Shown here one piece after another: positions 8,021 through 39,586 of a DNA stretch of 64,000 bases. The DNA comes from Candidatus Bathyarchaeia archaeon (lineage in GTDB: Archaea; Thermoproteota; Bathyarchaeia; Bathyarchaeales; Bathycorpusculaceae). The stretch lies in contig JBEKOM010000002.1 in the NCBI GenBank assembly GCA_049521795.1, forward strand, positions 160,001 through 224,000, given 5' to 3'. A model generated the notes under the pieces. The model was not told the DNA's origin, did not search any database, and was given only the letters and a program-made list of their open reading frames with translations. The translations under genes were made by a program, and so were the position numbers. Each line of letters starts with the position of its first letter. Position 1 is the stretch's first letter.

Positions 8021-8694
8021 AGTTCAGTGGAATTCAAAAAACCAGTCTGACGGATTTTCCAGGCAGAATATGCTCTGTGCTCTTCACGCCTGGCTGCAAC
8101 CTGCGCTGCCCCTTCTGCCACAACTGGCGCATAGTGGTCAACCCTCAACCACCCTTTCTCAACGAGGAAACGACCCTGAAAATTCTTGAAGAACGCAAAA
8201 AATACGTTGACGCAGTCGTGGTCACCGGCGGAGAACCGACGATCCACAAGGAGCTGCCCAGGTTCTTGAAGAAGCTGAAAGACAGGGGGTTTGCAGTGAA
8301 ATTGGACACCAACGGATTGGACTCTCACATGCTGGAAGAGTGCTTGCAAAGCGTGGATTACGTAGCGTTGGATGTGAAAACGAGCCTGGAGAAATACATG
8401 CTGCTGGGAGCCAGAGACACGGCTGAACTTGTGCGCGCAATGGACATCTTGAAGATGGGCAAAGTCGAGTACGAGTTCAGAACAACGGTCGTGCCGGGCT
8501 TCTTTGAACCTGCAGACGTGTGCGCCATGAGTGGGCTTGTCAACGGCGCAAGAGCATGGGCCTTGCAGCAGTTCGTGCCAGGAGACACGCTTGACAAGAG
8601 CCTGAATGCACTGAAACCGTACACGCCGGAAGCAATGTCCAAGTATGCTGAAGGCATCAGAAACTATGCTGAGGAAATAATTCTTCGAACCTAG
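8017..8694 (+). CDS. nrdG: Class III RNR activating radical-SAM enzyme
   Basis: GCNLRCPFCHN (CxxxCxxC), TGGEPT, KLDTNG; ATGA overlap with nrdD. Confidence 0.93.
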   Translation: MKFSGIQKTSLTDFPGRICSVLFTPGCNLRCPFCHNWRIVVNPQPPFLNEETTLKILEERKKYVDAVVVTGGEPTIHKELPRFLKKLKDRGFAVKLDTNGLDSHMLEECLQSVDYVALDVKTSLEKYMLLGARDTAELVRAMDILKMGKVEYEFRTTVVPGFFEPADVCAMSGLVNGARAWALQQFVPGDTLDKSLNALKPYTPEAMSKYAEGIRNYAEEIILRT

Positions 8695-8844
8695 TTATCG
8701 AAGGTTTGCCCGGTTCACCATTCGACATAAACGACATTTCCACGAGTGATTTCTTCATGATCACCATTCCATCAGTATCAAGCGTAAGGTTTAAGGGTTA
8801 ACGGGTTGTTTAGGTTTGGAATGTTCTGTAACGAGGCTTAAGCT

Positions 8845-9396
8845 TTGAGTAAGAAAGTCGCCACTCTTGAAGAGCGCAAGGCCGAAGTTTTAATTAAACT
8901 CAGAGGATACAAACTCCACAAGAAACAGAAACGCGAAGATGCTGTTGAATACTTGGTCGATATTCCAAGGGACAAGCAGAAGGCCGTCGTTTGGTGCGTT
9001 CCCGGCGAAACCACAGTGGGCATAAACAGCATAAACCGTCTTGCGAAAGCCATGAAAGACGCAGACGTGGAAAGAGGAATAATAGTCACTGACGGAAGAT
9101 ACACGCACGCCGTCAAGCAGGGCGCCAAGAAGAAGAAGATTGAGCTCCTGCCTAAGACATTCCCCGCTTTCGACCTTTTTCAACACAGGCTTGTTCCGAA
9201 GCATGAAATTCTAAGCGAAGAAGAGAAAGCGGAGCTCCTGTTGAAGTACAGGGTGCAACCGTACCAGCTACCGCAGATAAGCTCATTGGACCCAACCGTC
9301 AAGGCGATAGGAGCCAAGCCTGGCGACATACTGCGGGTAATAAGAAAAAGTCCGACAGCCGGCGAGCACCTAGCGTTCAGATACGTTGTAGAATAA
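8845..9396 (+). CDS. rpoH: RNA polymerase subunit Rpo5/RpoH with an RPB5-like N-terminal domain
   Basis: C-terminal HRLVPKHEIL...QLPQI...DP...GAKPGDILRVIRKSPTAG...RYVV; extra ~110-aa N-terminal domain. Confidence 0.92.
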   Translation: MSKKVATLEERKAEVLIKLRGYKLHKKQKREDAVEYLVDIPRDKQKAVVWCVPGETTVGINSINRLAKAMKDADVERGIIVTDGRYTHAVKQGAKKKKIELLPKTFPAFDLFQHRLVPKHEILSEEEKAELLLKYRVQPYQLPQISSLDPTVKAIGAKPGDILRVIRKSPTAGEHLAFRYVVE

Positions 9397-9511
9397 GCCT
9401 ATTTGGCCATCGTGACCTCTGTTGCCTTCACAACGGCCTCAAATTGCTCCAAGGCGTTCATTTGTAAGCCAGACTTCATGTTACTCCGCCTACAGAGGGA
9501 CCCGCCCTGAG

Positions 9512-9736
9512 CTAGGGCTGGACCTTCCTTTCGCTCGCCAGTTCGCACAGAATCACTAATGCCTCGCCGAACGGTATGTTCAGTCTCGCGGCCAAATCTG
9601 CGGGGAATGTCTCGGGTTTTTCGGGGAGAACCGTATCTCTTGTGTAGGCTTTATGATGCGGGTACATGACTAAGGCGTGGACCGTTTCAACCAATACAGG
9701 CCAGAGTTTCTCCCCTGTGTATCCTTCAAAGTTCAT
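9512..9736 (-). CDS. Hypothetical protein, possible small HTH
   Basis: 74 aa ORF with ATG; ADLAARLNIPFGEALVIL resembles a helix-turn-helix. Confidence 0.55.
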   Translation of the reverse strand: MNFEGYTGEKLWPVLVETVHALVMYPHHKAYTRDTVLPEKPETFPADLAARLNIPFGEALVILCELASERKVQP

Positions 9737-32066: not shown

Positions 32067-32398
32067 TCGTTTCCTCCGCCGGACTCCTCAGGCTCAGCGG
32101 TCTCCGTTAACTTGAGGATTTCTGAATCACCTGGCTCTCTTATACTTAACGCTGAAACCGTGAAGGGCTTGCCGCACGCAGCGGCCAGATCCATCGATGA
32201 CCCTTTGTAGAGGACTAATGGAACCTTTGAGAGGTTGCTGTAGTATTCAACGTCCTCGCGGACCTTCTTAGGAGCGTTTGACGCGAGAATTATGAGCTTT
32301 GCTCTTCCTGTTTGAGCGCTTTGCACTGCGGAGCTGGCTCCAATCGACACTTTGCCAGTTTTCACGGCTGCTGAAATTGCTTTGTTTACGTCTATCAC
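32063..32398 (-). CDS. rpl30e: 50S ribosomal protein L30e
   Basis: AVKTGKV.IG, AKLIILASN.P, L...CGKPF.VSAL.I..PGDS.I. Confidence 0.96.
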   Translation of the reverse strand: MIDVNKAISAAVKTGKVSIGASSAVQSAQTGRAKLIILASNAPKKVREDVEYYSNLSKVPLVLYKGSSMDLAAACGKPFTVSALSIREPGDSEILKLTETAEPEESGGGNE

Positions 32399-35300
32399 TT
32401 CTTCTCACTCTTCTTCTCGATCGTTGACATGAACAATTCTACGAGTCCCGTGCCGATCGGTATCGACTGTCCGACTATTACGTTTTCGGTCACTCCTGCC
32501 AAGGGGTCGCTTTCACCCTTGACTGCCGCTTCAACGATGTTCGGGACCGTTATCTCAAAGGCTGCTCTGGCCAGAACGCTTGATTTCTTGCCGCTGATGC
32601 CGTGCCTTCCTATCTGCTGCACTTCACCCGTGGAGGTCATCATGTCTGCGACGAGCATGACGTGACGCGTGTCCACGTCCAACCCTTGTTCTTCCAGGAC
32701 GCCCTTAGCCTCGTTCACCAAGGCGTTTCTAGCAGCCTCAATGCCTATCGTTTTCGCTATTTCGTGAACGTTGTTGGTTGTTGTCCTTGAACTGTCAACG
32801 CCTGGGATTTCTAGGACCTTGGGCAGGTTTGAACCGTCTGTGTTTATGACCCATTCTCCATGCTCTTCGGTGACGAGCACGCGCTTTATGCCAGGGACTC
32901 CTTTGATGTGAAACACAGTGACTTTTCCAAGCATTTTCCTTATCGCTTCGACTTTTTTCGGCTGTACGTGTATGGTGTTGCCCTTTGTCTTTATGGTGCA
33001 GTTCGGAATTTGCAGTTTGTCCTTTAACTCCTGCATTGTCACTTCCCGGTCTTCCATCATAGTTTTGTCGGGTTCAATGATTATCTCTTCGTGCAATGGG
33101 TCTATGTAGACTGCTTCTGCAAGGTTCTCCATGGTTGTGTACACGATTTCGCGTGCAATCTTAACCGCGGCTTCCCTGCTTTTTCTGTTCTCTTCTGCCA
33201 AGTAAATCTTCATGATCGGAGTGGACGGGATTCTCCTCGCATCCACGATCTCGATCAGTCGAGGCAGGCCGAGGGTCACGTTTTGTTCCCTGACGCCTGC
33301 GTAGTGGAAGGTCCTAAGCGTCATCTGCGTGCCAGGTTCGCCGATGGATTGAGCCGCAACGATGCCTACTGCCTCGCCGGGTTCCATCAGGGCGTGTTTG
33401 TAGTGCTCGACGGTCGTGTTAACCGCTTTCTCGACGCCCGTCTTGGTCAGCCCTGCCTTTGCTGAGGTTTGCTTGAGCTGGTCTACAAGGATCGGTGTGA
33501 GTCGTCCTTGAACTTCGTCCAGTTTTTCTTTGATGAATTCGGCGGACGCTGGTCTGCCCTTCTCCTTAGCAATTCTTATTTGGTCAACCAACCGGCTAAC
33601 GTTCACTGCCTTTCCATGGTCGCTCTTGGCCGGGTCGACGCCGTCTTCGCCGTATTGGAACTGGATTATGTCTCCAGCCGAGTTTCTCACCGTGCTGTCG
33701 TACTCCAACCGTATGTGCTCAAGCGCGTTGATTAGTCTTCTCTGCATGTAGCCGCTCTGCTGTGTTCTGACGGCTGTGTCGACGAGGCCTTCTCGGCCGC
33801 CCATAGCGTGGAAGAAGAACTCTATCACGTCAAGCCCTTTCTGATACGAGCTGTACACGAATCCTCTGGCTTTCGGCCGTTGGTCTCCCGATTTGAAGTG
33901 GGGAAGAGCTCGGTCCACGTACCCACGGAGTATTCTCTTCCCACGGACTGATTGTTGTCCCACGCAGGCGCTTATCTGGCCGATGTTCAGGCTTGAGCCT
34001 CTGGCGCCGGTTCGCGTCATGATTATTCCAGAGTTCTCCAGAGTGAAGTCTTCGTCAGCTATCTTGCCTGATTCATCTCTTGCCTTTGCCAGCTCGTTCA
34101 TGACGTATATTTCGAAAGATTCTTCCAACGTTTGGCCTGGAAGCCTTGGCAACGTGCCCTTACGATAGCTTTCAATGAGGTCCTCTATCTTCTTCTCGAT
34201 TCTCTCCATAGTTTTTTCTATTCTGTCTTCAGCCTTGGGAGACAAGACCAGCTCGTTGTACGAGTAAGTGAAGCCTCGCATGGTTATGAAGAGCTTCAGC
34301 ATCCTTGTGATCTTGTTGAGGAACTCCCGCCCCGCCTGACTGCCATAATCCTTGATTATCCTGTGAAGAAGGCTTTCAGACTGTTCGGCACCTATGGAAC
34401 GTCTGTCAATCACGCCGCTTACAAGCTCGCCGTTCTTCACGACAACGTAAGCGTCATATTTGCATTCTTCTTCTAGACACTTCACGCATCCTTGACAGAT
34501 GTTAGCCTTCAAAACGTAGTTCATGTCCTTCGGTAGGAACAGACTGAAGATCTGCTTTCCCGTCCACAATGGTTGCGGCTGTTTGACCACTGGCAGAGGC
34601 ACTTGGCCCTCGTATTTGGCTGCCAAGAGCAGCTTGTTTACTTCGCTTCTTGTCAAGTAGTTTGCTTTTCTAGTGAACAGGTAGGCTGACGTTATGAAGT
34701 CTCTGATGGCCCCTATTATTGGACCTCCAAACCTAGGCGAAAGGATCTGGTCCTGAACCTGCATAAGCAGGAGAGCTTCGGTTCGAGCCTCTTCGCTTTG
34801 AGGAATATGCAGGTTCATCTCGTCGCCGTCGAAGTCTGCGTTGTACGGTGGACAAACGCACAGGTGCAGGCGGAACGTTTTGTATGGCAGAACGCGGACG
34901 TAGTGCGCCATGATCGACATGCGGTGAAGTGAGGGTTGACGATTGAAGATGGCAATGTCTCCGTTCTTCAAGTGCCTCTCCACGATGAAACCCAGTTCGA
35001 TGGCTTCAGCGATCTTTTCTCTGTCAACCACGAATTCGAGTCTTATGCGCTTGCCGTCGGGCCTGATGATGTAAAGGGCTCCGGGGTAGCCTTCAGGTCC
35101 GTTTTTCACGAGGGTTCGCATCTCTTCAATGTTCCATTCTGTGACTTTTTCGGGCACTGAGAGGCGCATCGCAATTTCAAGCGGAACGCCTACCTCGTTT
35201 ATGTCGATGTTCGGGTCAGGCGAAACAACGGTGCGCGCTGAGAAGTCTACCCTTTTTCCAGAAAGGTTGCTTCGGAATCTTCCCTCCTTTCCCTTCAGTC

Positions 35301-36213
35301 TTTGCGAGAGTGTCTTGAGGGCTCTGCCAGAGCGGTGTCGGGCCGGGGGAATTCCTGAAGCCTCGTTGTTGAAGTAGGTCGTCACATGGTACTGAAGGAG
35401 TTCTGACAAGTCTTGAATTATGAGCGTAGGCGCTCCTGCGTCCATGTTTTCTTTGAGCCTCTGATTAATTCGAATTATGTCCACGAGCTTGTGAGTCAAA
35501 TCGTCCTCTGAACGAATGCCCGATTCCAAAGTTATTGATGGGCGAACATAGACGGGTGGTACAGGAAGAACCTGCAGAACCATCCATTCGGGGCGAGCCG
35601 TTTTCGGGTTGAACCCCAACAGTTCAAGGTCCTCGTTAGTGATGCGTTCCAGTCTTTCTCGGACCATGCTGGGCGTCAACGGTTCTGAACCGCTTTCAGG
35701 GATCTGTTCGCTGAACTTTGTTGGCTTCTCAAAAGTGATCTTGTACTGCACCGCTGCACATTGAGGACACTGCCTTCTCTTCGTTTCCTGCATGATCGAT
35801 TTATAAACTTCGTCCGGAACCAGACCCAAGAGTTGGCGCGTCTTCTCCACCTTTGCCTTGGCCCTCTCAATGACGTCGTCTGGAAGCATTATGCGTCCGC
35901 AGTTTCGACAAGTCGCCCTCAGGAGGTCGTATATGATCTTCGTGAACTCAATGTGCACTATGGGAACTGCTAGTTCGATGTGACCGAAATGCCCTGGGCA
36001 GCGAATTGCCGTGTTGCCGCAGGTCTTGCACCTCTGTCTTGGTTCAAGGGTTCCAAGCCTCCCGTCCATCAGGCCTGAGGAGATTGGAGCGCCGTCTTCA
36101 TCGTAAGTGTCTGGTGTCTGAATTTCCACTACTGAATTCTTGCGCACGTCCTGTGGCGAGAACATGCCGAAGTTTATTTCATTCACAACTTTGCGGACAA
36201 TTTCCTCGCTCAT
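32395..36213 (-). CDS. rpoA1: RNA polymerase largest subunit, unsplit Rpo1 (A' and A'' in one ORF)
   Basis: CPGHFGHI, NADFDGD, GGREGLVDTA, then A''-type AAQSIGEPGTQMTLRTFH and ARAAFE in a single 1272-aa ORF. Confidence 0.97.
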   Translation of the reverse strand: MSEEIVRKVVNEINFGMFSPQDVRKNSVVEIQTPDTYDEDGAPISSGLMDGRLGTLEPRQRCKTCGNTAIRCPGHFGHIELAVPIVHIEFTKIIYDLLRATCRNCGRIMLPDDVIERAKAKVEKTRQLLGLVPDEVYKSIMQETKRRQCPQCAAVQYKITFEKPTKFSEQIPESGSEPLTPSMVRERLERITNEDLELLGFNPKTARPEWMVLQVLPVPPVYVRPSITLESGIRSEDDLTHKLVDIIRINQRLKENMDAGAPTLIIQDLSELLQYHVTTYFNNEASGIPPARHRSGRALKTLSQRLKGKEGRFRSNLSGKRVDFSARTVVSPDPNIDINEVGVPLEIAMRLSVPEKVTEWNIEEMRTLVKNGPEGYPGALYIIRPDGKRIRLEFVVDREKIAEAIELGFIVERHLKNGDIAIFNRQPSLHRMSIMAHYVRVLPYKTFRLHLCVCPPYNADFDGDEMNLHIPQSEEARTEALLLMQVQDQILSPRFGGPIIGAIRDFITSAYLFTRKANYLTRSEVNKLLLAAKYEGQVPLPVVKQPQPLWTGKQIFSLFLPKDMNYVLKANICQGCVKCLEEECKYDAYVVVKNGELVSGVIDRRSIGAEQSESLLHRIIKDYGSQAGREFLNKITRMLKLFITMRGFTYSYNELVLSPKAEDRIEKTMERIEKKIEDLIESYRKGTLPRLPGQTLEESFEIYVMNELAKARDESGKIADEDFTLENSGIIMTRTGARGSSLNIGQISACVGQQSVRGKRILRGYVDRALPHFKSGDQRPKARGFVYSSYQKGLDVIEFFFHAMGGREGLVDTAVRTQQSGYMQRRLINALEHIRLEYDSTVRNSAGDIIQFQYGEDGVDPAKSDHGKAVNVSRLVDQIRIAKEKGRPASAEFIKEKLDEVQGRLTPILVDQLKQTSAKAGLTKTGVEKAVNTTVEHYKHALMEPGEAVGIVAAQSIGEPGTQMTLRTFHYAGVREQNVTLGLPRLIEIVDARRIPSTPIMKIYLAEENRKSREAAVKIAREIVYTTMENLAEAVYIDPLHEEIIIEPDKTMMEDREVTMQELKDKLQIPNCTIKTKGNTIHVQPKKVEAIRKMLGKVTVFHIKGVPGIKRVLVTEEHGEWVINTDGSNLPKVLEIPGVDSSRTTTNNVHEIAKTIGIEAARNALVNEAKGVLEEQGLDVDTRHVMLVADMMTSTGEVQQIGRHGISGKKSSVLARAAFEITVPNIVEAAVKGESDPLAGVTENVIVGQSIPIGTGLVELFMSTIEKKSEKK

Positions 36214-36214
36214 C

Positions 36215-39200
36215 TTATGCCCTCTCCTTAAGCGTTAATCTTGGCGAGATGCACAGGCTCATCAGTTCTTGCAGCAGAAGCTTGAACGCATAGGAAACTA
36301 TAACGGGAGAGATTCTGGCCTTGTCCTCGCAGAGCTTGCAAACGTATTTTCTTTGCTTCATGTCATAGTAGGCTATGTGTCCACACGTCTCGCAGATGTA
36401 GAGCGTGTACTTGTCAGATTCTTCGAGCAGTCTGTCTCTTAGGAGCATAGCGGCTCCATGGCCAATCAGACAGTCGCGCTCCATTTCACCGAACCTGAGG
36501 CCGCCTCCTCTGGCTCTTCCCTCAGTCGGCTGCCTCGTCAGCATCTGAACTTGTCCACGGGCTCTGGCGTGAATCTTGTCCGCCACCATGTGATGCAGCT
36601 TCTGATAGTGCACAACGCCGACGTAGATGTCGGCGACGAATTTCTGACCTGTCACACCGCTGTAGAAGACTTCACTGCCGGTGCTGCTGAAGCCCAGCTT
36701 GATCATGGCAGACCTCAGCGCGTCGGGCCCTTCGTTTGAGAAGGGCGTTCCATCAGTAGGCCGTCCGCGTGCAGAGGCAACTTTTCCGGCTATTGATTCG
36801 ATGAACTGGCCAACGGTCATCCTTGACGGGATAGCGTGCGGGTTGATTATCAAGTCTGGAACGATGCCGTCTTCCGTGAAAGGCATATCTTCCTGAGGAA
36901 CGATCAGGCCGATGACGCCTTTTTGTCCGTGGCGCGAAGCGAATTTGTCGCCTAGTTCTGGGATGCGTTGGTCGCGGACTCTGACTTTTACAAGCTTGCT
37001 TCCTTCTCCAGACGCTGTGATGAAGATTGCGTCGACGACGCCTGTTTCTGATGGGCGCATGTCCACTGAGGTGTCGCGCATAGAAGGCCCTTTGACTTCA
37101 AATTCTTTGTATTCTTCAAGGAACCTTGGCGGACTGATTCTGCCGATGAGGACGTCTCCGCCTGCAACGGCCGACTCTAGGCCTATTATTCCGTCTGGTT
37201 CAAGCAGTCTGTAGTACTGTTCTCCTCTGTATCCGCGTGTTCCTGCTTCGGGTAGGGTGAATTTGTCTTTCAGTCCGCCCAAGTATTGGCGACACTCAGC
37301 CTCGTAGATTCGGAAGAAGGTTGAGCGTCCTAGGCCTCTTTCTATCGAAGCCTTGTTGAAAACAAGGGCGTCTTCCATGTTGTAACCCTCAAAAGATAGC
37401 ACCGCGACTACGTAGTTTTGACCTGATGGGCGCAGCTTGTAGCCCATTGTGTCCATCAGTGCGGTTTCAGCAAGCGGGGCCTGTGGGTAGTGCAAGATGT
37501 GTGATCTTGAGTCTACGCGTTGCTGGAAGTTTGTCGAGTAGATTCCTAGAGCTTGTTTGGCCATTGCGGCTTGATACGAGTTGCGGGGTGACTGGTTGTG
37601 CTCTGCGTAAGGTATTGTTGACGCGCAGATTCCTAGAATGGTGTACGTGGCAATTTCTAAGTGCGTGTGGTCGCGGCTCAATTCTTCGGGGCTTAAGGCG
37701 ATATAAGCGTTCTCCTCTTCTTCAGCGTCCAAGTATTCTATGATTCCGTTCTTTACGAGTTCTTCCCAGGACCAGACTCCCGTGGCGATCTTCTCAATCT
37801 GTTCAGGCTGAAGCTTTGGCACACCGTTTTCAACGATTATAAGAGGGCGTCTGACTCTGCCCTCGTCGCAGTTTACGTAGACTTCTTCCCTCTCTCCCTG
37901 GGCCTTCGAGAAGTAGGCTATGTTGACTTCGGTGGAAACCTCTCCTCTTCTCCTTCTTTCCCTGAAGTCTTGGGCCAGGCGATCTGGAGAGTTGCAGTAT
38001 CCTATTGTGTTGCCGTCTACGAAAACCTTTGTTCCAGAAAGCTTCAACGTGTCGTTGGCCTCAAGAATCGGTGTTACGCCGCTGGCGAACAAAAGCTGTC
38101 TCATCTTTTCCGGGTTCACGCCCACAGAGATGCAGGCAGACAGGGCCAAGTTCTTCACCAGTCCGCAGTTTGAGCCCTCTGGTGTTTCGTTTGGGCAAAG
38201 GCGGCCCCAGTGGGTTGCGTGTAAGTCCCTTGCTTCGAAGTTGGGTTGGCTTCTGCTGAGAGGCGATTGGAGGCGTCGCAGGTGACTTAGTGTTGAAATG
38301 TGGTTTGTTCTGTCGAGAAGCTGGGTTATGCCAACTCTGCCTCTTCCCCAGTTTCCGGTTGCAAGCGCATGTTGAAACCTTTCAGCTATTATGCCCGGCC
38401 TCACGGCTGCTGAAACGGTTATTATCGGCCCCTTCACACCGATTCTTTCAAGTTGATATTTTATGTCGCGGGTGAGATTTCTAAACGCTACTCTGAAAAG
38501 GTCTGCAAGCAGAGGACCTGCCAGTCTCAACCGCTTATTCTTGAAGTGGTCTTTGTCATCTTGCTTCCTCCTTCCAAGCTGCATTTCTATTGCCCTGCAG
38601 GCCATCTCGCCTAAGAACAGGGCCTTGTCCTTCCTCTTCTGTTCCGTTCTGCCTATGTGTGGAAGGAAGTTCTTGTCCACCGCAGTTTCGGCTTTCTGCA
38701 CACGGTACTCTTCTACCTGTCCATGAGCAACACGGTTGCCAATGAACAGAATGGCGTCTTTTGCTGTGTCGACTCCGATGGCTTTTTCGAAGGACGCCTC
38801 GAGTGCGGTTTGGATTTCGTTGTCCAGAGAGATTGCCTCGGCAATTTCCTTGTCAGATTCAAGTCCTAAGGCACGCATCAGGACGACAAAAGGAACTTCG
38901 GAAGGAACGCCTGGCATTGAAACGTACAATGCACCGTCAGACTTGATCTTCAACTCGATTCTTGCCCTGAACCCCACAGTTGTCGAAAATATCTTTGACT
39001 GATAGACCGGCGTTGCTCCTTTCTCGTCAACGTCGACTATTATGCGGTTGGGAGCCAGGTCTTCCATAGCCACTACGACGCGCTCTGAACCGTTCACAAC
39101 GAAGTAGCCGCCCGGGTCATCAGGATCTTCTCCACATGAAATCAGTTCCTCTCTTGAGAGTTGTGAGAGGAAACACAGCTTTGACTTTAGCATTACAGGG

Positions 39201-39586
39201 ATGTTCCCGATGTAGACGAGCTCAGTGTCCTGTTCTCTGCCGTCTATGACAGGCGTCATTTCGAGGGCTACGGGCGCCGCGTAGGTCAGGTTTCGAAGTC
39301 TAGCCTCCAAGGGGTTTATTTCGTGTTTTGTACCATCGACTTCAGTCGCATACGGTCCGGTTATTCTGGTCTGTGGGTCTATTATCCAGATCTGACCCAG
39401 CTTGACCTTGTAGGGGCTTTCAGGCACTTCTATGGGGATTTCGCCGACTTCGTCTATGACTTCCTGCAATCCGCGGTCGATGAACTCGTTGAAGGAGTCT
39501 AAATGCTGTCGAACCAATCCCTTGTCTTTAAAAAAGGCGTTCAACAATAGATGCGTGTCTTCTTTTGATATTTCAGTCAATTTCAA
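36215..39586 (-). CDS. rpoB: RNA polymerase subunit Rpo2/B, unsplit
   Basis: GGYFVVNGSER, ETPEG, GDKFASRHGQKG, GGLRFGEMERD, C-terminal Zn finger. Confidence 0.97.
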   Translation of the reverse strand: MKLTEISKEDTHLLLNAFFKDKGLVRQHLDSFNEFIDRGLQEVIDEVGEIPIEVPESPYKVKLGQIWIIDPQTRITGPYATEVDGTKHEINPLEARLRNLTYAAPVALEMTPVIDGREQDTELVYIGNIPVMLKSKLCFLSQLSREELISCGEDPDDPGGYFVVNGSERVVVAMEDLAPNRIIVDVDEKGATPVYQSKIFSTTVGFRARIELKIKSDGALYVSMPGVPSEVPFVVLMRALGLESDKEIAEAISLDNEIQTALEASFEKAIGVDTAKDAILFIGNRVAHGQVEEYRVQKAETAVDKNFLPHIGRTEQKRKDKALFLGEMACRAIEMQLGRRKQDDKDHFKNKRLRLAGPLLADLFRVAFRNLTRDIKYQLERIGVKGPIITVSAAVRPGIIAERFQHALATGNWGRGRVGITQLLDRTNHISTLSHLRRLQSPLSRSQPNFEARDLHATHWGRLCPNETPEGSNCGLVKNLALSACISVGVNPEKMRQLLFASGVTPILEANDTLKLSGTKVFVDGNTIGYCNSPDRLAQDFRERRRRGEVSTEVNIAYFSKAQGEREEVYVNCDEGRVRRPLIIVENGVPKLQPEQIEKIATGVWSWEELVKNGIIEYLDAEEEENAYIALSPEELSRDHTHLEIATYTILGICASTIPYAEHNQSPRNSYQAAMAKQALGIYSTNFQQRVDSRSHILHYPQAPLAETALMDTMGYKLRPSGQNYVVAVLSFEGYNMEDALVFNKASIERGLGRSTFFRIYEAECRQYLGGLKDKFTLPEAGTRGYRGEQYYRLLEPDGIIGLESAVAGGDVLIGRISPPRFLEEYKEFEVKGPSMRDTSVDMRPSETGVVDAIFITASGEGSKLVKVRVRDQRIPELGDKFASRHGQKGVIGLIVPQEDMPFTEDGIVPDLIINPHAIPSRMTVGQFIESIAGKVASARGRPTDGTPFSNEGPDALRSAMIKLGFSSTGSEVFYSGVTGQKFVADIYVGVVHYQKLHHMVADKIHARARGQVQMLTRQPTEGRARGGGLRFGEMERDCLIGHGAAMLLRDRLLEESDKYTLYICETCGHIAYYDMKQRKYVCKLCEDKARISPVIVSYAFKLLLQELMSLCISPRLTLKERA

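Follow-up and report, generated by a model that had tools for sequence, protein, structure and literature searches.

Among the shared RNA polymerase subunits, Rpb5 is the only one with an N-terminal half regarded as having been added in eukaryotes. Passages of a 2018 review (PMC6690254) describe this half as a jaw that contacts downstream DNA, with TPSA as the reported DNA-contact motif, and state that archaeal RpoH is devoid of it; the same half is presented there and in passages of a 2026 paper (PMC13257274) as a target of regulators, TFIIB, HBx and RSC among them. The locus considered here raises the question of whether such a jaw also exists in archaea and, if so, where it came from. It encodes an Rpo5 (RpoH) of 183 amino acids, against 77-84 for the solved archaeal Rpo5 chains, and a sequence-only reading of the DNA had proposed that the additional residues form a jaw like that of eukaryotic Rpb5, a domain it considered to be usually described as absent from archaeal Rpo5, which the 2018 passages bear out (PMC6690254). 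No description of an archaeal two-domain Rpo5 was found in the literature searched, supplements and subscription journals lying outside its scope, and the long form goes unmentioned in the Rpo5 passages of the 2026 paper on small archaeal subunits, which treats Rpo6 and Rpo8 (PMC13257274). If true, a jaw-bearing archaeal Rpo5 would move the origin of the module into the archaea and reveal the enzyme family that was its source. It would also provide a simpler system for approaching the role of the jaw in promoter opening and in the handling of downstream DNA. Annotations are to be read with caution in this respect, long-form genes being named plain "subunit H".

The window, that is the whole stretch of DNA analysed, comprises 64,000 nt of the Bathyarchaeia contig JBEKOM010000002.1 (assembly GCA_049521795.1; positions 160,001-224,000, forward strand). 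The open reading frame proved to be as the sequence-only reading had described it. Its coordinates are collected in Table 1, along with those of its domains, its upstream elements and the rpo1 and rpo2 genes.

Table 1. Coordinates of the long rpo5 gene, its parts and related features (positions in the window)
Feature	Position	Strand	Remarks
Conserved block with TATA-like TTTAAG (8790-8795)	8782..8830	+	13 upstream regions aligned; likely promoter and leader start
Shine-Dalgarno-like GAGG	8833..8836	+	8 nt 5' of TTG; read directly from the sequence
rpo5/rpoH gene	8845..9396	+	183 aa, TTG start, stop included; sole PF01191 match of the genome
N-terminal domain, residues 6-108	8860..9168	+	Dead Mrr-type PD-(D/E)XK fold, jaw-like
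W50-C51-V52, strand beta-3	8992..9000	+	Site of (Q/E)-x-K in active Mrr domains; MAFFT alignment
Hinge, residues 100-112, ELLPKTFPAFDLF	9142..9180	+	Joins the two domains
C-terminal assembly domain RNA_pol_Rpb5_C / RpoH, residues 110-181	9172..9387	+	Pfam, NCBIfam
rpo1	32395-36213	-	Unsplit, 1272 aa, Rpb1 domains 1-5 in one frame, directly after rpo2
rpo2	36215-39586	-	1123 aa; without rpoH upstream

The start of the gene and its upstream region are conserved. The rpo5 start codon is TTG in 12 of 13 aligned upstream regions and GTG in the other, and a GAGG or GGG run occupies the same place in most of them. Farther 5', AA.GTTTA.GG and the positions that follow it are invariant across the 13 regions, and the sequence still farther 5' is unconserved. 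Judging from this conservation, the block is likely to be an archaeal promoter of the TATA/BRE type together with the leader. The block, about 50 nt long, is kept at 13 loci encoding proteins of 61-95% identity; it reaches well beyond TTTAAG, and its conservation exceeds the needs of a promoter alone. A search of Rfam over positions 8600-9500 returned no match, and a scan for sigma-70 promoters and terminators gave nothing, the sigma-70 model not being applicable to archaea. On the other side of the gene, a convergent 74-aa ORF (9512-9736, minus strand) is without Pfam match at E ≤ 1e-5.

This gene is the only place in the whole assembly (98.75% complete) that encodes an Rpb5_C domain. A canonical short rpoH elsewhere in the genome, which the sequence-only reading had pointed to as a possible true subunit, was searched for throughout the assembly and none was found, which leaves the long form as the only candidate for the subunit. 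The usual archaeal gene order is rpoH-rpoB-rpoA, with rpoH directly upstream of rpo2-rpo1, an arrangement that is typical and not strictly defining. Here rpo5 is separated from rpo2/rpo1 by 23 kb and lies on the opposite strand; it sits 3' of nrdD and nrdG, on the same strand as these, and is followed by genes for a GNAT acetyltransferase, a HAD hydrolase and a pyrophosphatase. For the only sequence pair free of saturation, dN/dS amounts to 0.063 for the N-domain and 0.122 for the C-domain, and it ranges from 0.03 to 0.11 for the N-domain in the other pairs with estimable dS. The N-terminal part is therefore excluded as an untranslated leader, since it is under purifying selection like the C-domain.

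The C-terminal part is readily assigned. PF01191 matches residues 110-181 (E 6.3e-28; 96.8 bits for a cut-off of 23.5), the NCBIfam RpoH equivalog NF007129 matches residues 109-183 (103.7 bits for a cut-off of 83), and HRLVPKH, noticed earlier as the HxLVPxH motif leading the assembly domain, indeed opens the Rpb5_C match. Residues 14-102 are covered by two overlapping Pfam models of the restriction-endonuclease clan, both above cut-off: NA-iREase1 (PF22722), the best-scoring model for this domain with 40.5 bits (cut-off 27), and Mrr_cat (PF04471), with 37.3 bits (cut-off 21). Both of them match 25/25 relatives. RNA_pol_Rpb5_N (PF03871; gathering score 27 bits) is unmatched by the 183-aa protein even at E ≤ 10 and matched by a single one of the 25 relatives (E 0.042). 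Mrr_cat and PF03871 were the two models against which the sequence-only reading had wished the domain to be compared; the former was recovered and the latter was not. PF03871 was nevertheless set aside as a misleading test of membership: its scope is eukaryotic residues ~4-94 alone, and Rpb5 proteins of eukaryotes also match Mrr_cat and NA-iREase1 (P0242 1.7e-13, P0244 1.8e-5, P0232 3.3e-4). The eukaryotic jaw is therefore a diverged Mrr-type domain as well. For this reason, asking whether the archaeal domain clusters with Mrr-type nucleases or with the N-terminal domain of Rpb5, as had been proposed, is an ill-posed test. Pfam and structure place the domain nearer Mrr, and sequence profiles and collinearity point towards common ancestry with Rpb5.

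In the MAFFT alignment with catalytic Mrr domains, the aspartate of the Mrr D-G-G-I-D strand corresponds to E35 of Rpo5, its relatives having S, G, A, K or T at this place, and the Mrr strand-3 Q-C-K corresponds to W50-C51-V52, with a conservation of W50 of at least 90%. The catalytic lysine is absent from every RNAP-linked form shown in the alignment, archaeal or eukaryotic. Because the catalytic aspartate and the (Q/E)xK lysine are replaced, the Rpo5 N-domain should not be able to cleave DNA. A role as an active nuclease or in defence was rejected, the catalytic residues being missing. The TPSA loop of Rpb5 aligns with Y86-T87-H88-A89-V90-K91, of which T, A and K are conserved in at least 90% of the sequences, (Y/F)T..A being general to Mrr domains; a conserved basic run (AKKKK) follows the YTHAVK loop directly. 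In the hinge, 24 sequences have E100, L101, P103, P107, F109 and F112 without exception. The same genome also carries a stand-alone 124-aa ORF (L094:455-829; contig C4, 104754-105128) with a weak match to the Rpo5 N-domain profile (E 4.4e-5); it consists of a small Mrr-like domain with no obvious (Q/E)xK and adjoins a P-loop kinase-like gene.

The two-domain form is not peculiar to one genome. Relatives number 1473 in the protein database at E ≤ 0.001, and the best 120 of these 1473 are all 176-199 aa long and all carry PF01191, PF22722 and PF04471. At least 200 stretches of species-representative genomes encode a relative. Among 80 retained loci, 76 are labelled Bathyarchaeota, Bathyarchaeia or Bathyarchaeales, with identities of 47-95%, and 78 of the 81 loci examined in a motif scan have the gene with its long N-terminal frame. 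When 301 genomes belonging to this GTDB phylum were searched with the full-length profile, two-domain matches were obtained in 16/16 genomes of the same family and in 18/18 others of the same order (34/34). The long form is found in 0/9 genomes of the other orders of the class Bathyarchaeia: in eight of them the match is limited to profile positions 102-178, within open frames of 85-123 aa, and the ninth has no match. A profile of the N-domain only gave no match across these nine genomes (94-100% complete), its positive control being the window's own genome (E 3e-49). In the other classes of the phylum, none among the matches listed reaches before profile position 83, and the best E value per genome ranges from 1.6e-33 to 6e-7, compared with 4e-47 or better for two-domain genes. 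Within Bathyarchaeia, the long Rpo5 is thus standard for a single order and does not extend to the class in general. Some departures from the single intact copy were encountered: the related genome G013 has a second, partial copy (C11:326498-326848; profile positions 39-155, 146-aa frame), G053 has two full-length copies on contigs C48 and C58, and the C-terminus of locus L065 is frameshifted.

Beyond this order, an exhaustive search of 1.84 billion representatives with the N-domain-only profile retrieved 230 proteins at E ≤ 0.001, of which 150 were classified. They include 24 full-length proteins of 170-200 aa associating the N-domain with an RpoH C-domain, 41 classical catalytic Mrr-like domains and three eukaryote-type Rpb5 proteins (P0232, E 3.9e-5; P0242; P0244). 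In the tree presented below, one of the 24 fused forms, P0122, clusters with the Bathyarchaeia rows. The remote two-domain protein P0187 shares 83% identity along its full length with a subunit H labelled Promethearchaeota (Asgard) at NCBI, and no relative of it was found in viral contigs. A protein atlas search returned only Bathyarchaeota and Nucleocytoviricota clusters, P0187 and P0141 not being placed. Several other arrangements came to light in these sequences. Metagenomic proteins of 180-280 aa (P0159, P0163, P0170, P0173, P0175, P0181, P0185, P0209, P0214, P0215, P0218, P0247, P0259 and P0158) carry a dead nuclease domain similar to that of Rpo5 followed by a Cys-rich, zinc-ribbon-like tail in place of the RpoH domain, and the N-terminus of P0158 additionally gives a weak match to a TFIIB-type zinc ribbon. 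In P0193 (481 aa), P0219 (436 aa) and the eukaryote-type P0242 (456 aa), Rpb5_C is preceded by two or three jaw-like domains in tandem, and P0250 (561 aa) has a chaperonin fragment inside; these four forms could be real or could be artefacts of assembly.

The sequence of the N-domain is itself informative as to its kinship with Rpb5. An N-domain-only profile built from 25 Bathyarchaeia sequences was compared with 177,635 PDB sequences and found seven Rpb5 entries with E values of 7e-6 to 1.2e-3 (Drosophila 7e-6, mammals ~5e-4, Arabidopsis 1.2e-3), the next matches having E values of 0.066 or worse. Positions 21-88 of this profile align with Rpb5 residues 51-117. A continuous HMMER alignment spans both domains and the hinge, from query residues 27-182 to residues 47-205 of Arabidopsis NRPB5A. 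The short similarities first noted by eye fall into place in these alignments: HMMER aligns TVGINSIN with the K(V/I)GIKTIK of Rpb5 and MKDADVERGIIVTDGRYTHAVKQ with its eukaryotic counterpart segment, and MAFFT aligns LRGY with DRGY. These matches go beyond chance.

HMM cross-searches were carried out in a small database with Z set to 1000 and significance set at E ≤ 1e-3; the eukaryote set of the jaw HMM consisted of 14 metazoans (joined by P0244 when the search was run again), and the Mrr set came from among the matches of the Bathyarchaeia profile. The metazoan jaw HMM gave a median of 17.1 bits on Bathyarchaeia N-domains (19/25 significant), 10.3 bits on the other fused forms (6/24 significant) and 4.2 bits on catalytic Mrr domains (0/41 significant). 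The Mrr HMM gave 54.2 bits on Bathyarchaeia N-domains, 34.8 on the other fused forms and 13.2 on eukaryotic jaws. By these reciprocal scores, the archaeal N-domain is intermediate: it lies closer to Mrr than the eukaryotic jaw does, and closer to the jaw than the Mrr domains do.

Structural comparison gives a different weight to the two likenesses depending on whether the whole chain or the N-domain alone is considered. The full-length AlphaFold2 model, built on a 24-sequence alignment, is a confident two-domain structure (pLDDT 89.4). In a Foldseek search of the PDB, its best 35 matches are all Rpb5 chains, from eukaryotes or from ASFV, many over ~200 columns and with E values down to 1.8e-15. 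On eukaryotic Rpb5, superposition of the whole model gives a TM score (TMq) of up to 0.78; the orientation of the two domains in the model may be owed partly to the training of AlphaFold on Rpb5. Archaeal Rpo5 chains are matched by the C-domain only (TMq 0.38-0.39, 48-61% identity). Modelled alone, the N-domain reaches a pLDDT of 93.1 and follows the order alpha-beta-beta-beta-alpha-beta-alpha-beta. In a Foldseek search with this model, EndoMS (1e-4) comes slightly ahead of Pol II Rpb5 (3.9e-4; rmsd 2.3, 27% identity). VIA-align gives Z scores of 10.4 for AF1548, 10.3 for NucS, 9.2 for AspBHI and 8.4-8.5 for VC1899, Can2 and MspJI, compared with 8.1 for plant Rpb5, 7.3 for ASFV Rpb5 and 6.4 for plant NRPE5. 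As modelled on its own, the N-domain is structurally nearer to generic Mrr-type nucleases than to Rpb5.

A maximum-likelihood tree was calculated from 66 N-domains and 107 columns (8 eukaryote-type, 13 Bathyarchaeia, 24 other fused forms and 21 Mrr), for which the eukaryote, Bathyarchaeia and Mrr sets were thinned to alternate members and P0244 was added. All 21 rows of catalytic Mrr lie on one side of a branch supported at 100/100. In the free tree, whose bootstrap had not fully settled and which has long branches for three rows, the eukaryotic jaws group as a clade (99/90) that is sister to P0187 and P0245 (97/88). This Asgard-sister position is not upheld by the AU test, which did not reject a topology with the jaws held with the Mrr rows, outside all archaeal forms (p 0.525). 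The tree, which is unrooted and made of three groups, shows only that jaws and archaeal domains fall outside the sampled catalytic Mrr; for the same reason, one fusion and two fusions are inseparable by it.

The gene encodes the single Rpo5 of its genome, a conserved two-domain protein whose dead Mrr-type N-domain has a specific sequence likeness to the Rpb5 jaw. The two-domain Rpb5 architecture, which the sequence-only reading had offered as one of two possibilities for this lineage, is real, conserved there and that of the sole Rpo5 of the genome. It is probable, in our opinion, that the protein is a long Rpo5 with its N-domain disposed like a jaw at the cleft and that ancestry shared with Rpb5 is the likelier source of the resemblance. 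Homology shows the C-terminal 75 residues to be an ordinary assembly domain anchoring Rpo5 on Rpo1, the largest subunit. The N-terminal 105 residues form an Mrr-type fold that, according to the alignment, has lost the catalytic aspartate and the (Q/E)xK lysine. This domain is predicted to be present in the polymerase, at the lower end of the DNA cleft, and to touch downstream duplex DNA as a lower jaw, by comparison with Pol I, II and III, the Y-T-x-A-x-K loop aligned with TPSA and the AKKKK run being candidates for the contacting residues.

Shared ancestry is favoured because sequence profiles and collinearity point that way. One ancient archaeal fusion of a dead Mrr domain to RpoH would then be the ancestor of both jaws. 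It would have survived in a single order of Bathyarchaeia as well as in some Asgard archaea, other lineages having lost it or never had it. On balance we lean towards such a single event in archaea as the origin of both the N-domain and the eukaryotic jaw. We would give about even chances to the fuller scenario in which the Rpb5 lower jaw was archaeal before eukaryotes arose and persists in this order and in some Asgard archaea, the eukaryotes having inherited it and diverged fast and the Bathyarchaeia representing a slowly evolving intermediate.

The alternative already raised by the sequence-only reading, on which sequence and structure evidence are split, is that of convergence: a dead Mrr-type domain would have been fused to RpoH independently in Bathyarchaeia, perhaps in other archaea, and in the eukaryotic stem, and the archaeal protein would still bear a jaw. 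Mrr-type domains are abundant and mobile, many of them having been retrieved by the N-domain search, and both Pfam and structure put the domain nearer to Mrr than to Rpb5; against it, both groups join the domain to one and the same partner, in one order and across an aligned hinge, and both have lost the same catalytic lysine. The patchy distribution of the long form (0/9 in other orders, none detected in other classes among the matches listed) fits separate fusions, but with the jaw HMM the archaeal RpoH-linked domains score above the catalytic Mrr domains. As for the tree, the AU test allows jaws outside all archaeal forms, yet neither group is nested within the sampled Mrr clade. We consider convergence unlikely, while regarding it as the main competitor to shared ancestry.

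That archaea acquired the long form from a eukaryotic or giant-virus source, Nucleocytoviricota encoding two-domain Rpb5 homologues, appears very improbable. It is suggested by the atlas clusters of similar size and domain content, which are mostly viral, and by the presence of ASFV Rpb5 among the fold matches, but the C-domain is closest to archaeal Rpo5 (59-61% identity; Thermococcus E 1.4e-24, compared with ~3e-20 to 1e-9 for eukaryotic and viral chains). The N-domain is moreover less derived than the eukaryotic one, being closer to Mrr and without the ~20-residue insertion, the gene is a sole copy conserved throughout the order, and a scan of viral contigs gave no relative of P0187. Finally, it is hardly credible that the gene call is an artefact, with the true RpoH beginning downstream and the first 105 codons representing an untranslated leader or a separate gene run on, as the TTG start and the typical RpoH length of 75-85 aa might suggest, given that no stop or start lies near residues 105-110 (the sole internal Met is M70), the N-part has a dN/dS of 0.03-0.11, the TTG and GAGG are conserved, the N-domain fold is confident (pLDDT 93) and the same frame occurs in 78/81 loci scanned.

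The protein can be compared with five known systems. With canonical archaeal Rpo5 (77-84 aa; 4qiw_H, 8cro_H, 7ok0_H, 2waq_H), it shares a C-domain that is 48-61% identical (61% with the Thermococcus chains) and superposes with an rmsd of 1.5-1.9 over 74-75 residues; unlike these subunits, it has ~105 extra N-terminal residues forming a full domain, and its gene is not located upstream of rpo2/rpo1 as canonical archaeal rpoH is. The Mrr-type nucleases (PF04471; AF1548 1y88_A; NucS/EndoMS 2vld and 5gkj; AspBHI, MspJI) display the same core fold as the N-domain (Z 8.4-10.4 over 96-101 residues) and have in common with it (R/K)GY after helix 1, VG(I/V) after strand 3 and (Y/F)T..A. In contrast to these enzymes, Rpo5 has other residues in place of the catalytic D and the (Q/E)xK lysine, and the partner of the domain is an RNA polymerase subunit instead of a DNA-recognition or ATPase module. 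NA-iREase1 (PF22722), the NACHT-associated inactive restriction endonuclease, is an inactivated Mrr-like domain just as the Rpo5 N-domain is, but the latter has no NACHT or other NTPase partner: Rpb5_C is the only other domain of the protein, and the neighbours of the gene are NrdD, NrdG, GNAT and HAD.

The remaining two systems are two-domain subunits. The Rpb5 homologues of NCLDV (ASFV 8q3b_E), of ~180-205 aa, match the fold over the full length (E 8e-14, TMq 0.71) with 17-18% identity for ASFV Rpb5, and the similarity of their C-domain is far lower (E 1e-9). Eukaryotic Rpb5 (RPABC1/POLR2E of Pol I, II and III; 8uhd_E, 5flm_E, 7eu0_E, 1dzf) has the same order of two domains joined by a short hinge, the N-domain being a PD-(D/E)XK fold without catalytic residues and the C-domain Rpb5_C, and the whole Bathyarchaeia chain superposes on it with 21-32% identity. 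The Bathyarchaeia protein differs from the ~210 aa of Rpb5 by its length of 183 aa, its shorter hinge and the lack of the ~20-residue insertion found in eukaryotes between helix 1 and the sheet. The TPSA motif of Rpb5 reads YTHAVK in this protein, and the archaeal N-domain is much nearer to Mrr_cat than the eukaryotic jaw is.
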